Sequence record: HM173637
Strand: one strand, 5' to 3'
DNA: 36,661 nt
Source: Escherichia phage HK75
Shown here: one piece after another, positions 2,057-29,072 of the stretch
How positions within the stretch are numbered: position 1 is the stretch's first letter
How the letters are laid out: each line of letters opens with the position of its first letter
Translations under genes and position numbers: made by a program
The notes under the pieces: generated by a model
Told to the model about the DNA's origin: nothing
Databases searched by the model: none
The model's input: the letters and a program-made list of their open reading frames with translations, nothing else

Positions 2057-3330
2057 TGGAAGAACCTAAATACACGATTGACCTGCGAACCAATAACGGC
2101 TGGTGGGCAAGGCTGCAGTCCTGGTTTGTCGGCGGGCGTTTAGTCACCCCAAATCAGGGCTCACAGACGGGGCCTGTTTCGGCCCACGGACACCTGGGCG
2201 ATTCATCCATTAACGATGAACGGATACTGCAAATTTCGACTGTGTGGCGCTGCGTGAGCCTGATTTCAACGCTCACGGCATGCTTACCGCTTGATGTCTT
2301 CGAAACAGACCAGAATGACAACCGTAAAAAAGTGGATTTGAGCAATCCACTGGCGCGACTGCTGCGCTACTCACCGAATCAGTACATGACCGCCCAAGAA
2401 TTCAGGGAGGCCATGACGATGCAGCTCTGTTTCTACGGTAACGCATATGCACTTGTGGACCGCAACAGCGCAGGTGACGTGATCAGCCTACTCCCGCTTC
2501 AGTCTGCCAATATGGATGTGAAACTCGTCGGAAAAAAAGTGGTTTATCGCTATCAACGCGACAGCGAATACGCCGACTTTTCGCAGAAAGAGATTTTTCA
2601 CCTTAAAGGCTTCGGATTCACCGGGCTTGTAGGCCTGTCACCCATTGCTTTTGCCTGTAAATCGGCAGGTGTGGCAGTTGCGATGGAGGACCAGCAGCGA
2701 GATTTCTTTGCCAACGGCGCCAAGTCTCCGCAAATCCTCTCAACTGGCGAAAAAGTGCTAACTGAACAGCAGCGCTCCCAGGTCGAAGAGAACTTCAAAG
2801 AGATCGCCGGCGGCCCGGTAAAAAAACGCCTCTGGATTCTGGAAGCGGGTTTTTCTACATCGGCAATTGGCGTAACTCCGCAGGATGCCGAAATGATGGC
2901 GTCCCGAAAATTTCAGGTAAGTGAACTGGCGCGATTCTTTGGCGTACCGCCTCACCTTGTCGGCGACGTCGAGAAATCAACGAGCTGGGGATCGGGCATC
3001 GAGCAGCAGAATCTCGGCTTCCTGCAGTACACCCTGCAGCCCTATATCTCCAGGTGGGAAAACAGCATTCAGCGGTGGCTTATTCCTGCTAAGGATGTTG
3101 GCCGCATTCATGCTGAGCACAACCTCGACGGCCTGCTGAGGGGCGATTCGGCATCCCGCGCTGCCTTTATGAAGGCAATGGGAGAGGCAGGGCTACGCAC
3201 CATCAACGAGATGCGACGAACGGACAACCTCCCGCCATTGCCGGGTGGCGATGTGGCAATGCGCCAGTCGCAATACGTGCCGATCACCGATTTAGGAACC
3301 AACAAAGAGCCCCGTAATAACGGGGCTTAA
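2053..3330 (+). CDS. Portal protein (HK97 family)
   Basis: 425-aa ORF between terminase and prohead protease; GTG at 2053 or ATG at 2056 overlaps the TerL stop. Confidence 0.8.
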   Translation: MMEEPKYTIDLRTNNGWWARLQSWFVGGRLVTPNQGSQTGPVSAHGHLGDSSINDERILQISTVWRCVSLISTLTACLPLDVFETDQNDNRKKVDLSNPLARLLRYSPNQYMTAQEFREAMTMQLCFYGNAYALVDRNSAGDVISLLPLQSANMDVKLVGKKVVYRYQRDSEYADFSQKEIFHLKGFGFTGLVGLSPIAFACKSAGVAVAMEDQQRDFFANGAKSPQILSTGEKVLTEQQRSQVEENFKEIAGGPVKKRLWILEAGFSTSAIGVTPQDAEMMASRKFQVSELARFFGVPPHLVGDVEKSTSWGSGIEQQNLGFLQYTLQPYISRWENSIQRWLIPAKDVGRIHAEHNLDGLLRGDSASRAAFMKAMGEAGLRTINEMRRTDNLPPLPGGDVAMRQSQYVPITDLGTNKEPRNNGA

Positions 3331-25727: not shown

Positions 25728-25869
25728 AAAGAAGACTTCCAATAATCAGAACAAGTCGGCTCCTGTTTAGTTACGAGCGACATTGCTCCGTGTATTCACT
25801 CGTTGGAATGAATACACAGTGCAGTGTTTATTCTGTTGTTTGCGTGAAAATGAAATCTGCCTAAGCGGG

Positions 25870-26208
25870 TTATGACCACTTTTTGTTTGGGTTTCGTTGG
25901 TGAGCGTGATTAACAACTCTGTGCATTACATCCTCATATTTTTCATCTTCAATTTTTTCGACATCGCGAGGAAATGGTGTTGCTAATGCTTTGTCAACTT
26001 TGTCCATTGGGTCTTCATTAATCTTATATTCCGGACCGTCATCTATAGCATTAAATCCAGGTGTTACACCGTTTTCTAATGCATATGCCATTCTCTTTTC
26101 CCATCTCGCTATTCTCCTCCTGTCTTGAGATGTAAGGCATCTATCAGATACTTTTCTGTTTTGTCCGCGGTCAGGATTAACATAAATAGTCTTTTTCACC
26201 ATAAGCAT
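25870..26208 (-). CDS. Putative N-like antitermination protein
   Basis: First gene leftward of the repressor; basic Arg-rich segment SQDRRRIARWEKR near the N-terminus; ORF-track start at 26214 is TTG, first ATG at 26208. Confidence 0.3.
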   Translation of the reverse strand: MLMVKKTIYVNPDRGQNRKVSDRCLTSQDRRRIARWEKRMAYALENGVTPGFNAIDDGPEYKINEDPMDKVDKALATPFPRDVEKIEDEKYEDVMHRVVNHAHQRNPNKKWS

Positions 26209-26566
26209 ACTCAATAAGCACCGTACGGTAGTTTACTGTACAATTTTATTTTTTGGACTGCATGTATTTTGTTTCCTAATGGGTTTGAATCTTTGCAATA
26301 AATACTTCTATTTTTTCGAACGACTTCTATATCAAAAAGCTGCTTTGCTTTTTGTGACTAAAAGCAAAAAAGCCTTCTCGCTAATGAGCAGCATTGCCGT
26401 TCATCCTGAACCCGCCGCGCTCCCGACGCATGGTTTAAAGACGCGCCGTTCGTCTATGGGCTTATGATGTACCTAAAGTTCATTAATGTAAAGTACCAGT
26501 AGTACATTTTATGGGTATAAAAAGCTCACTACATCATAAGTTAGTGAACTTTAAGGAAATTTATTT

Positions 26567-27274
26567 TTATCCGAATCGCTTGTAATCGATTGACTGCCTA
26601 ATGAGGACTTTGGCTAGAATGTGAAGTTGCTCTTCTTCACCTTCTTCTATGTACCATCGATCATAAGCGGCATTGTCAGAGATGACGGCAAGCCTGTTCT
26701 TTTGCATTTGCAGGCGCTTAACGTGCATTGTTTTCCCGTATACAAACACATAAATGCCATCGCCATCAAAACAGGTTATGGATACATCAACAAAGATCTC
26801 ATCTCCCGGATTGATGGTTCCCTCCATGCTGTCACCGCGAACCGTGATGACTTTTACGCTTTCCTGTGGCCTTCCATTAAATAAAATTCTTGCCTGCTCG
26901 GTCGTATATTCAATTGCTCTTATCTTTTCTATAAATTCATTGGAAACCATGGTTCCTGGCCCGGCGCTCGCCTGAACATCCAATACATCAACACGATAAG
27001 AATCATTTGATCTTGATAGATGATTTACCGTGATACCGTCATCATCAGCATAGCCATGCAGATATGCCGCAGTGGTTCCCAGCACCGAAGCCAGAGATTC
27101 CATCTTGTCTTTTCTTGGTATTGACTCCCCGTTGAACCATTTACTAATGGCTTTTGGTGTGACCTTAAGCCTGACAGCTAAATCAGCCTGCCTACCATGC
27201 AAAGGTAATCCCGCTTTATCACAGGTCAGCGCAAGCCTCTGCGAGAAAGTTTCACGCTCTTTCTGTTGAACCAT
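26567..27274 (-). CDS. cI: cI-like prophage repressor (HTH plus S24 LexA-type peptidase domain)
   Basis: 235 aa from ATG 27274; N-terminal HTH; C-terminal GDSM Ser and VKRL Lys dyad; start codon lies inside an operator repeat (leaderless-type). Confidence 0.85.
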   Translation of the reverse strand: MVQQKERETFSQRLALTCDKAGLPLHGRQADLAVRLKVTPKAISKWFNGESIPRKDKMESLASVLGTTAAYLHGYADDDGITVNHLSRSNDSYRVDVLDVQASAGPGTMVSNEFIEKIRAIEYTTEQARILFNGRPQESVKVITVRGDSMEGTINPGDEIFVDVSITCFDGDGIYVFVYGKTMHVKRLQMQKNRLAVISDNAAYDRWYIEEGEEEQLHILAKVLIRQSIDYKRFG

Positions 27275-27283
27275 AAGTTCAAC
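27267..27283. promoter_or_regulatory. Operator candidate OR-a
   Basis: TGAACCATAAGTTCAAC containing palindrome TGAAC-N5-GTTCA; identical core repeated at 27324-27340. Confidence 0.55.
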
Positions 27284-27294
27284 TATATTAGGTA

Positions 27295-27323
27295 TTGACT
27301 GTACTATCAGTTCCGTCATAATA
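27295..27323 (+). promoter_or_regulatory. pR-like promoter for cro
   Basis: TTGACT (-35), 17-bp spacer, ATAATA (-10); next operator copy overlaps the predicted start site. Confidence 0.55.
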
Positions 27324-27340
27324 TGAACCATAAGTTCACC
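27324..27340. promoter_or_regulatory. Operator candidate OR-b
   Basis: TGAACCATAAGTTCACC, second copy of the 15-bp palindromic core. Confidence 0.55.
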
Positions 27341-27353
27341 ACAGGAGAGAAGC

Positions 27354-27575
27354 ATGAACGAAGTTACGTTTGCAGACGTTATCAAATCCGTTCGAGTTTC
27401 TGTTGTGGCTGAGGTTTGTGGCCTGACTCCAAAAGCCGTTTACAAGTGGCTGGAGAAAGGGGGATTGCCGCGTACAGAATTCACTGATGAAACTGACTAC
27501 GCGAAAAAAATCTCTCGTGCATCTGGCGGCAAATTCTCAACCGCACTGATTAAGCGAGTCGGAAAAGCAGCATAA
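27354..27575 (+). CDS. cro: Cro-like repressor
   Basis: 73 aa, divergent from cI, AGGAG RBS, HTH segment AEVCGLTPKAVYKWL. Confidence 0.7.
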   Translation: MNEVTFADVIKSVRVSVVAEVCGLTPKAVYKWLEKGGLPRTEFTDETDYAKKISRASGGKFSTALIKRVGKAA

Positions 27576-27704
27576 GCACGTTTTTAAAATGTACTTTTAG
27601 TTCCGAACGGCCCGGTATATGGTCGGGTGCCCGGCGTGGTCAAGGATGACTGTCAATGGTGCACGATAAAAACCCAAATTATTTACCTATGGAGATAGTA
27701 AGAA

Positions 27705-28001
27705 ATGGCACAAGCAAGCTACAGCAAGCCAACACAGCGAGAAATTGATCGCGCTGAAACTGATTTACTCATCAACCTGTCAACGCTTACCCAGCGCGGT
27801 CTGGCAAAGATGATTGGCTGTCATGAATCGAAGATAAGCAGAACGGACTGGAGATTTATTGCTTCGGTCTTGTGTGCTTTCGGAATGGCATCAGACATCA
27901 GTCCGATTAGCAGGGCTTTTAAGTATGCATTGGATGGAATCGCAAAGAAAAAATCCCCGGCTGCCACCGAGGATTTTAAGCAAATTGATATGCAATTCTG
28001 A
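27705..28001 (+). CDS. cII: cII-like transcriptional activator
   Basis: 98 aa; C-terminal KKSPAATEDFKQIDMQF close to recalled lambda cII C-terminus; HTH LAKMIGCHESKISR. Confidence 0.75.
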   Translation: MAQASYSKPTQREIDRAETDLLINLSTLTQRGLAKMIGCHESKISRTDWRFIASVLCAFGMASDISPISRAFKYALDGIAKKKSPAATEDFKQIDMQF

Positions 28002-28033
28002 GGGAATTACTGGATCAATCCACAGGAGTAATT

Positions 28034-28195
28034 ATGACAAAACGTCGTAAGAAATACCAGGAAAAAGAAGAGATTCGACACCCTGATTCACCTGAGGGAT
28101 TAGTGGTAGCCGCAGCAAATAACAGGGCGTTCGCAGAGCGCCTTGTTGGTGTTTACAGACTAGCCAAAGCAGGAGTGAAACATGGGCGTCGTTAA
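28034..28195 (+). CDS. Small basic protein (53 aa), unknown
   Basis: ATG with GGAG RBS (28025-28028); Lys/Arg-rich N-terminus; below the ORF-track size cutoff. Confidence 0.3.
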   Translation: MTKRRKKYQEKEEIRHPDSPEGLVVAAANNRAFAERLVGVYRLAKAGVKHGRR

Positions 28196-28244
28196 GTTAG
28201 CTGATTACAGGCATAACCCTGTACAACATCAGGAGGCATCCAGT

Positions 28245-29072
28245 ATGGGGTATGTCTCTATACACCGCCAGTTTATGGACAGCAGGCTCTATAAGGACTC
28301 TCAGGCAGTACATCTTTGGCTTCACTTAATTCTCAAGGCTAATCACGAATCTACTGTCGTCAATACGGATATCGGGCCGATAACTGTTGATCGCGGTCAG
28401 ATGATAACTGGACGCCCGTCGCTGGTCAGAGAAACATTCATCCCCGACAACAAAGTTCGGAGCTTATTACGGACTTTTGAGTCGAAAGGGATGCTTAATA
28501 TTTGCTCGATGGGGAAGAAATTTAGCCTGTTTACAATCGTTAAATATGACGATTTTCAGGCAAAAAATTGTCCAACGGTTGTCCAACGGTTGTCCAACGC
28601 AAACACCAGTAATGGCGCGGCTCTCAGCGGAGATTGTCCAACGGTTGTCCAACGGTTGTCCATAAACAATAATATAAATAATATCTCTAATACTGACGTA
28701 TTAGAGAGTGCCACAGCAGACAAAAAGTCTGACAAGAAAAAACCTTCCGTTAGCTGTCAGGATGTTGTCGATGCTTACCACGAAATCCTTCCTGAAGCGC
28801 CAAAAATCCGCGCACTGAATGACAAGCGTAAAAACCAGATCCGAACGTTCTGGCGCAAAGCCGGAGTGATAACCCGCCAGCTTGACGGGCATGGGTTCAC
28901 GATGCAGGACTGGAGAAATTATTTGAGCTACGTAGGCGAAAATTGTCGATGGATGTTCGAAGAGCGTCCAAACCATCAACGCGGAACTGTCTGGCACAAA
29001 AAGGGATTTGATTTCCTGCTTAACGACAATACCTACCTGAAAGTTCGTGAGGGTGAACACGATGACCGATAA
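28245..29072 (+). CDS. Replication initiator (lambda O / P22 gp18-like) containing the origin iterons
   Basis: ATG 28245 with AGGAGG RBS; two clusters of three 11-bp iterons inside the coding region followed by an AT-rich stretch. Confidence 0.7.
   Translation: MGYVSIHRQFMDSRLYKDSQAVHLWLHLILKANHESTVVNTDIGPITVDRGQMITGRPSLVRETFIPDNKVRSLLRTFESKGMLNICSMGKKFSLFTIVKYDDFQAKNCPTVVQRLSNANTSNGAALSGDCPTVVQRLSINNNINNISNTDVLESATADKKSDKKKPSVSCQDVVDAYHEILPEAPKIRALNDKRKNQIRTFWRKAGVITRQLDGHGFTMQDWRNYLSYVGENCRWMFEERPNHQRGTVWHKKGFDFLLNDNTYLKVREGEHDDR
28568..28600 (+). repeat. ori iteron cluster 1 (3 x TTGTCCAACGG)
   Basis: Three tandem 11-bp direct repeats. Confidence 0.8.
28634..28666 (+). repeat. ori iteron cluster 2 (2 x TTGTCCAACGG plus degenerate TTGTCCATAAA) followed by AT-rich region
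   Basis: Tandem 11-bp direct repeats 33 bp after cluster 1; AT-rich 28667-28700. Confidence 0.8.

Follow-up and report, generated by a model that had tools for sequence, protein, structure and literature searches.

Two identical 15-bp repeats between cI and cro of phage HK75 as probable OR3 and OR1 operators of an HK022-type immunity region

The divergent cI and cro genes of Escherichia phage HK75 are separated by ~80 bp in which one 15-bp sequence, TGAACCATAAGTTCA, stands twice. This arrangement raises the question of whether the two copies are operators of the phage repressor and, if so, how many operators make up the region and which promoters they serve. In the window, i.e., the whole stretch of 36,661 nucleotides that was analysed (sequence record HM173637), an exact-match search finds TGAACCATAAGTTCA exactly twice, at 27267-27281 and 27324-27338, and all remaining copies resembling it carry at least three mismatches. 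The initial annotation had described these two identical sites and read them as repressor operators bracketing a promoter; the sites themselves are real, the coordinates it gave for them (27268-27282 and 27325-27339) being one nucleotide too high. Its description of the sites as palindromic holds for the outer 5 bp only, where TGAAC and GTTCA form an inverted repeat, and not for the central CATAA, which is asymmetric. The two copies, 57 bp apart, have the same orientation, and their flanks diverge right outside the 15-mer on both sides.

A search of the whole window for TGAAC-N5-GTTCA, which had been proposed as a check, yields two perfect sites, both in OR, against ~0.035 expected by chance (36.6 kb / 4^10). 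When up to two mismatches are allowed, 24 matches are obtained versus 16.8 expected, that is, there is no window-wide enrichment. The operator signal is the clustering of the matches in the immunity region, not their total count. Regarding 15-mers repeated less than 200 bp apart, the only others found in the window besides TGAACCATAAGTTCA are the replication-origin iterons (28567-28660).

The 1.5 kb around OR is 95.7% identical to the HK022 immunity region (X16093, AF069308) and to O276, an HK022/lambda hybrid, and the segment 27240-27370, with OR1-OR3, pR and both the cI and the cro start in it, matches HK022 at 100% of its positions. The annotation of X16093 covers pR and pL as well as potential repressor sites, three of them oR and two oL, and all of these map exactly onto HK75. 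The left copy of TGAACCATAAGTTCA is the 'oR pot. repressor binding site' 3000-3014 (OR3, 27267-27281) and the right copy is the oR site 3057-3071 (OR1, 27324-27338), in agreement with their earlier reading as repressor operators flanking pR. A further oR site, 3033-3047, corresponds to a 15-mer between them (OR2, 27300-27314) that matches TGAAC-N5-GTTCA with two mismatches. The operators are thus already known, being annotated in the GenBank entry of the published HK022 immunity region.

In our reading, the two 15-mers are OR3 and OR1 of a lambdoid phage with HK022 immunity and form, together with OR2, a classical three-site OR between cI and cro; we assign to this reading a probability of about 0.93. 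The cI gene (26567-27274, minus strand) encodes a protein of 235 aa with an HTH_3 domain (Pfam match, 2.5e-9) and a Peptidase_S24 domain (2.7e-19) of the LexA-like autocleavage type. This protein shares 233 of its 235 residues with HK022 CI, and the two substitutions, T17A and S92Y, are both located outside the predicted recognition helix. Its N-terminus, MVQ..., is also that of 933W CI. On the other side, cro (27354-27575, plus strand; 73 aa) is preceded by a Shine-Dalgarno sequence (AGGAG, 27343-27347), the ribosome-binding site being annotated in X16093, and encodes a divergent allele that is 77% identical to HK022 Cro; at this degree of identity, the operator preferences of HK75 Cro are an assumption. 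A divergent cI/cro pair, three related dyad-symmetric sites between the two genes, a repressor with HTH and S24 domains, and OR1 and OR2 over pR are the hallmarks of a tripartite-OR lambdoid switch, and all of them are found here.

The lytic promoter pR (27295-27322, plus strand) consists of a -35 hexamer TTGACT (27295-27300), a 16-nt spacer and a -10 hexamer CATAAT (27317-27322). It matches 10 of 12 positions in the promoter scan and is annotated in O276 as well as in X16093 (-35 at 3028-3033, -10 at 3050-3055). A promoter between the outer operators is therefore present, as had been proposed, although TTGACT-17-ATAATA was shifted by one base with respect to the correct TTGACT-16-CATAAT. This promoter is overlapped by two operators: OR2 lies in its spacer, and OR1 starts 2 nt beyond its -10 hexamer and spans its start point.

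A CI search of one genome per species plus IMG/VR returned 63 related loci, with CI proteins that are 100-43% identical, and these loci reduce to 35 distinct OR regions. In all but two of the variants, OR3, a -10-like hexamer, the pR -35, OR2, the pR -10 and OR1 follow one another in the same register; the exceptions, which are the most divergent variants, are displaced by one or two bases or have TTAAC half-sites. Each half-site position carries 1.6-1.9 bits of information, compared to 0.66 bits in the spacer 27288-27294. What is conserved are the half-sites and their positions. Among relatives, variation is free at the centres of OR1, OL1 and OL2, with at least ten different pentamers at the OR1 centre, and the OR3 centre is held by the Met-Val codons. 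OR1 and OR3 are exactly identical in no more than 3 of the 35 variants, each of which has a CI 98-100% identical to that of HK75. This identity is thus specific to one lineage, whereas the half-sites, the OR2 centre and the position of the ATG at the OR3 dyad are constrained.

In a Rahnella prophage whose CI is 55% identical, all half-sites of the three operators read TTAAC/GTTAA and not TGAAC/GTTCA, and the start of the recognition helix differs as well (TPKAISKW versus SEPGIWKW). This covariation of half-sites and recognition helix is good evidence that the sites belong to the repressor. In the same relative, the ATG still falls on the OR3 dyad, and a -10-like hexamer, GATACT, stands 6 nt before it. 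A more distant relative, from Tatumella, has a Shine-Dalgarno sequence and no operator over its ATG.

The cI start codon does lie inside the left operator, as the initial annotation had it: the ATG occupies 27274..27272 (minus strand), and the dyad centre of OR3 coincides with its A, the presumed +1 of PRM. The central CAT of OR3, which places the ATG on the dyad, is present in the 35 OR variants. As the operator half-site TGAACTT takes up the 7 nt preceding the ATG, cI is devoid of a Shine-Dalgarno sequence. The putative PRM, or PM (27282-27310, minus strand), combines a -35 CTGATA (27310-27305), a 17-nt spacer and a -10 TATAGT (27287-27282) that ends 7 nt before the ATG, with 9 of 12 positions matched in the promoter scan. 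All 35 variants have, 6-8 nt before the ATG, a -10-like hexamer in which A2 and T6 are retained; in the variants with the common register, this hexamer adjoins OR3 and reads TATAGT, TATGCT, TATGAT or TATTAT. In line with this, a 'PM-10' label is placed on the native leader before the HK022 cI ATG in the supplement of PMC8053113. In addition, OR2 hardly varies at its centre (TNTCAG, or CTGANA when read along the cI strand), where the relatives show no more than three different pentamers; set against the variable centre of OR1, this fits a PRM -35 hexamer inside OR2.

Given the missing Shine-Dalgarno sequence, the conserved -10-like hexamer and an OR2 centre that fits the PRM -35, the best reading is that cI is quite probably expressed from PRM as a leaderless or near-leaderless transcript. 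The proposal of a leaderless cI mRNA as in lambda pRM is in this regard well supported by these features and by the 'PM-10' label, even if we still infer the transcript. The alternative would be a leadered cI transcript, arising from PRE or from another upstream promoter, perhaps with translation starting at an upstream in-frame ATG to give an N-terminally extended CI. The PRE-like promoter at 27695-27727 must indeed yield leadered cI mRNA during establishment, and the reading frame extends upstream beyond 27274 and includes further ATGs at 27331, in OR1 and with a GGTG 5 nt before it, and at 27319. However, the ATG at 27331 is missing in most relatives, where the OR1 centre reads CTACA, CTCTA and the like, the one at 27319 is a mere complement of the pR -10, and a stop codon closes the upstream frame in the Rahnella relative. 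Moreover, the annotated HK022 CI begins with MVQQ, and cI cloned from the MVQQ ATG expressed HK022 CI in a loopometer assay (PMC8053113), so that an extended CI was discarded as unlikely; the conserved -10-like hexamer adjoining OR3 likewise speaks against this alternative. Altogether we regard the leadered transcript as an unlikely alternative and retain the leaderless or near-leaderless PRM transcript in what follows.

With this best PRM candidate, the OR2 dyad falls at about -33 from the cI start, and the operator contains the PRM -35 hexamer, whereas in lambda the corresponding dyad is at -42. An OR2 centred near -42, the lambda geometry for sigma contact, is not what is found here, and lambda-style activation of PRM by OR2-bound CI is therefore not to be assumed. 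The starts of pR and PRM are ~56 bp apart, with their -35 hexamers crossed, compared to 82 bp in lambda. Occupancy of OR2 might even hinder PRM. A repressor bound at OR2 could occupy one face of the DNA and leave the other to sigma region 4, an activation geometry resembling that of lambda CII; alternatively, it could stimulate PRM in an indirect manner only, by displacing the polymerase that competes at pR. The broader notion that the HK022-type switch follows a logic different from that of lambda, with the PRM -35 in the uncontacted centre of OR2, crossed -35 hexamers, and a terminator and OL3 that are dual-coded, is a speculative one to which we give little credence, and either the PRM/OR2 logic or the dual-coded terminator may already have been settled in the HK022 papers of 1989-1993.

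As to the number of operators, the earlier count of two at OR does not stand, since a third one, OR2, had been missed. A switch in which the repressor acts on the two identical 15-mers only and the promoter between them is operator-free would agree with the perfect matches being restricted to these two sites; but TGTACTATCAGTTCC in the pR spacer is annotated in X16093 and scores 16.9 with the PWM, it is kept in all 35 variants, and in the Rahnella prophage its half-sites have changed together with those of OR1 and OR3, which makes a two-operator switch very improbable. Least credible of all is that the repeats are targets of some other protein (host LexA, or Cro only) or a product of chance or a duplication remnant without regulatory role, because, even if Cro very probably shares the OR sites, this family of sites is clustered nowhere but in the immunity region, its half-sites covary with the CI recognition helix, and conservation is confined to the half-sites and promoter hexamers. 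Sharing of operator sites between Cro and repressor is known from other lambdoid phages. With regard to host LexA, a box search revealed no LexA box in OR or OL, and this candidate was consequently rejected.

For HK022, the operator sites were reportedly predicted in 1989 by Oberto et al. Their biochemical characterisation followed in 1993 and, according to a later article, HK022 CI binds adjacent operators in OR and OL cooperatively (Carlson & Little 1993, via PMC8053113). A cooperativity factor of ~2000 for HK022 repressor dimers is quoted in PMC7498355, and looping between OL and OR by HK022 CI was shown in vivo (PMC8053113). Binding, cooperativity and looping are taken here from this HK022 literature; our own analysis bears on the positions, identity, conservation and covariation of the sites, from which the following scheme would be derived.

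In the three-site reading, CI dimers would recognise TGWAC-N5-GTWCA. The centres of OR1, over the pR start, and OR2, in the pR spacer, are 24 bp apart, so that cooperative occupancy of the two would shut off pR and thereby turn off cro and the lytic right operon. As the centre of OR3 falls on the first base of cI, the likely start of PRM, CI bound at this site would autorepress its own leaderless mRNA. The same repressor would act on OL1 and OL2 at pL, probably on OL3, and on OFR downstream of cro. Since OR1 and OR3 are identical, an ordered filling of the operators would have to come from cooperativity and spacing. Within this scheme, the start point of PRM, the leaderless mRNA, the exact position of OL3 and the role of each site are those that we infer.

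The suggestion that one repressor also controls pL is in keeping with the oL sites of X16093, which map around that promoter and would place it under CI. Promoter pL (26464-26492, minus strand), with a -35 TTTACA at 26492-26487 and a -10 CATCAT at 26469-26464, is found in X16093, in O276 and by the promoter scan. OL1 (TGTACCTAAAGTTCA, 26468-26482) is located in the pL spacer and corresponds to the oL site 2201-2215; OL2 (AGTACCAGTAGTACA, 26492-26506) abuts the pL -35 and corresponds to the oL site 2225-2239. Both are conserved, and they score 19.3 and 14.6, respectively, with the PWM, which was built from six annotated or inferred operator sites. A probable OL3 (TGAACTTTAAGGAAA, 26545-26559), with a good left and a weak right half-site, is the best match between OL2 and cI (PWM 10.7). 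Its predicted centre lies 53 bp from that of OL2, or ~5.05 helical turns. In this regard, PMC8053113 describes loop-like DNase I patterns over 'the 53 bp between OL2 and OL3' of HK022, and the two positions probably agree, provided that the published figure is a centre-to-centre distance.

The initial annotation had instead pointed to an operator-related element at 26533-26549 in the pL region. The stretch CATAAGTT is indeed present, at 26535-26542, but the element is not an operator: its PWM score is -2.1 (26530-26544), it is not conserved, and it is made up of the loop and the 3' arm of a terminator hairpin. Only its TGAAC, at 26545-26549, belongs to the probable OL3, whose TGAACTTTAAGG is conserved in relatives, whereas the CATAAGTT stretch is not.

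The hairpin itself, at 26516-26552 on the minus strand, is the predicted intrinsic terminator of cI. Its stem arms (26521-26531 and 26542-26552) enclose a loop at 26532-26541 and are followed by a U-run; the hairpin has 11-12 bp, with an RNA fold of -11.6 kcal/mol (z = -4.06). Across 24 distinct relatives, 92.3% of cells are paired and 6 of the 13 pairs show compensatory changes, and neither any of 500 shuffles nor any slid register pairs as well. This terminator plausibly prevents PRM transcripts from running on into pL, putL and nun. More speculatively, with the hairpin made of invariant operator half-sites, the same bases would encode both OL3 binding and RNA termination.

An additional CI operator, OFR (TGTACTTTTAGTTCC, 27590-27604; PWM 18.9), is predicted between cro and putR, directly upstream of the latter, and is conserved in relatives as TGTACTTTTAGTACC. 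It recalls the CI operator with a role in immunity that PMC8053113 mentions for HK022, 300 bp downstream of OR. The rest of the early-control module comprises the antiterminator RNAs putL (26386-26448, minus strand), identical to that of O276 over 63/63 positions, and putR (27608-27664, plus strand), with 56/57 positions identical to O276 putR. The PRE-like, cII-dependent promoter (27695-27727, minus strand), derived from pE/oE of X16093, has TTGC-N6-TTGC at 27714-27727 and a -10 at 27695-27700, and cII is also present. At the other end, nun (25870-26208, minus strand) encodes a transcription-termination and exclusion factor of 112 aa that is ~96% identical to HK022 Nun. An Rfam scan of 25800-28100 matched no family at E <= 1. 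Correct coordinates are hereby available for the whole regulatory module, which extends from 25870 (nun) to 27727 (PRE-like promoter).

The module has much in common with that of lambda, namely divergent cI and cro genes, three operators that serve a lytic and a maintenance promoter, an OR3 that overlaps PRM, a cI gene with no Shine-Dalgarno sequence and a -10 hexamer 6-7 nt before its ATG, an inducible repressor of the S24 type, a cII-dependent PRE, and OL-OR looping. In contrast to lambda, however, the HK75/HK022 operators have 15 bp (5-N5-5, TGWAC) and not 17 bp, OR1 and OR3 of HK75 share one sequence, the dyad of OR3 falls on the PRM +1 rather than on the PRM spacer, the additional operator OFR is present, and antitermination is RNA-based (put), whereas lambda uses N. 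Three-site OR regions with OR1 nearest to cro and CI autoregulation via OR3 are also known from 434, P22, 933W and BAA2326 (PMC5977221), with operator sequences and affinity hierarchies that differ from those of HK75. Among these phages, 933W is without OR1-OR2 cooperativity and without OL3 (PMC5977221), whereas HK022 CI relies on an unusually strong cooperativity (PMC7498355).

With respect to HK022 itself, pR, pL, OL1, OL2, OFR, putL, putR, PRE, nun and cII occupy the same positions in HK75. OL1 and OL2 differ by one base each, in central, unconserved bases that are not contacted; OFR differs by 1 nt, GTTCC instead of GTACC, a change towards the consensus; and Nun carries five substitutions. 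A near-identical CI, the same OR operators, and the same OL operators plus OFR are the sequence marks of imm HK022, and HK75 has them all. Beyond the immunity region, HK75 resembles HK633, HK446 and mEpX1 in its structural genes and not HK022. On these sequence comparisons, HK75 can be classed as a mosaic lambdoid phage with HK022 immunity, since its structural genes are of the HK633/HK446/mEpX1 kind and its immunity region is HK022-like. This assignment places HK75 in a rare immunity group, as only 10 out of 5426 complete genomes of E. coli have the HK022 type.

Phage HK75 is, as judged from sequence comparison, a mosaic that carries HK022's immunity region, since its morphogenesis genes (1-24000) are 97-98% identical to those of HK633, HK446, HK106 and mEpX1, and not to those of HK022. 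An identical CI is encoded on IMG/VR contig 3300045988_073674 (36,018 bp). In addition, Nun (25870-26208) differs from its HK022 counterpart at five positions, two of them within or adjoining the arginine-rich RNA-binding motif, which changes from DRGLTSRDRRR in HK022 to DRCLTSQDRRR in the window.

Cro (27354-27575) shares only 77% identity with its HK022 counterpart, although OR and cI are essentially identical, and relatives whose CI is merely 72-80% identical to that of the window have a Cro far nearer to the HK022 protein than the window's Cro is. These findings suggest a recombination junction within cro. With respect to OFR, the extra CI operator between cro and putR, a single substitution at position 27602 gives GTTCC in the window, as compared to GTACC in HK022 and all examined relatives, and brings the operator towards the OR1/OR3 half-site.

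Directly past the cI stop codon, on the minus strand, a hairpin followed by a U-run (26516-26552) is the predicted intrinsic terminator of cI, supported by covariation of its inner stem among relatives; the outer stem is formed by an operator-like pair, GUUCA/UGAAC, that is invariant in the relatives compared. At 26514-26528, most relatives show a good GTTCA half-site, which suggests a possible fourth OL site with its centre 22 bp from that of OL2. HK022 and the window have GCTCA at this position, and the terminator stem is still paired on the RNA, as a G-U wobble. Additionally, the loop of the terminator, TACATCATAAG (26530-26540), forms a perfect 11-nt inverted repeat with CTTATGATGTA (26461-26471), which spans the -10 element of pL. 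By our own arithmetic, about 0.04 such pairs would be expected by chance in this 1.5-kb region, and the repeat is limited to HK022-type loci and one relative with 83% identity (L026).

Among more distant relatives, the Rahnella sp. PCH160 locus (upstream of 2501) has the same OR architecture, but its operators read TTAAC-N5-GTTAA and its recognition helix differs; it appears to represent a separate immunity specificity inside the same switch design. In Tatumella punctata (upstream of 985; CI 61% identical), the start codon is preceded by a normal Shine-Dalgarno sequence (GAGGTG) and the ATG has no overlapping operator, which argues that the ATG-in-OR3 design is not universal across the wider family. 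An HK022-like cI and OR (79% identical) are also found on a 1026-bp contig of an assembly labelled Streptomyces sp. NPDC002677, probably as enterobacterial or phage contamination.

Finally, within the gene for a 296-aa replication-initiator-like protein (28182-29072), TTGTCCAACGG recurs about eight times, in tandem or in clusters, at 28567-28660; these repeats are presumably the origin iterons.
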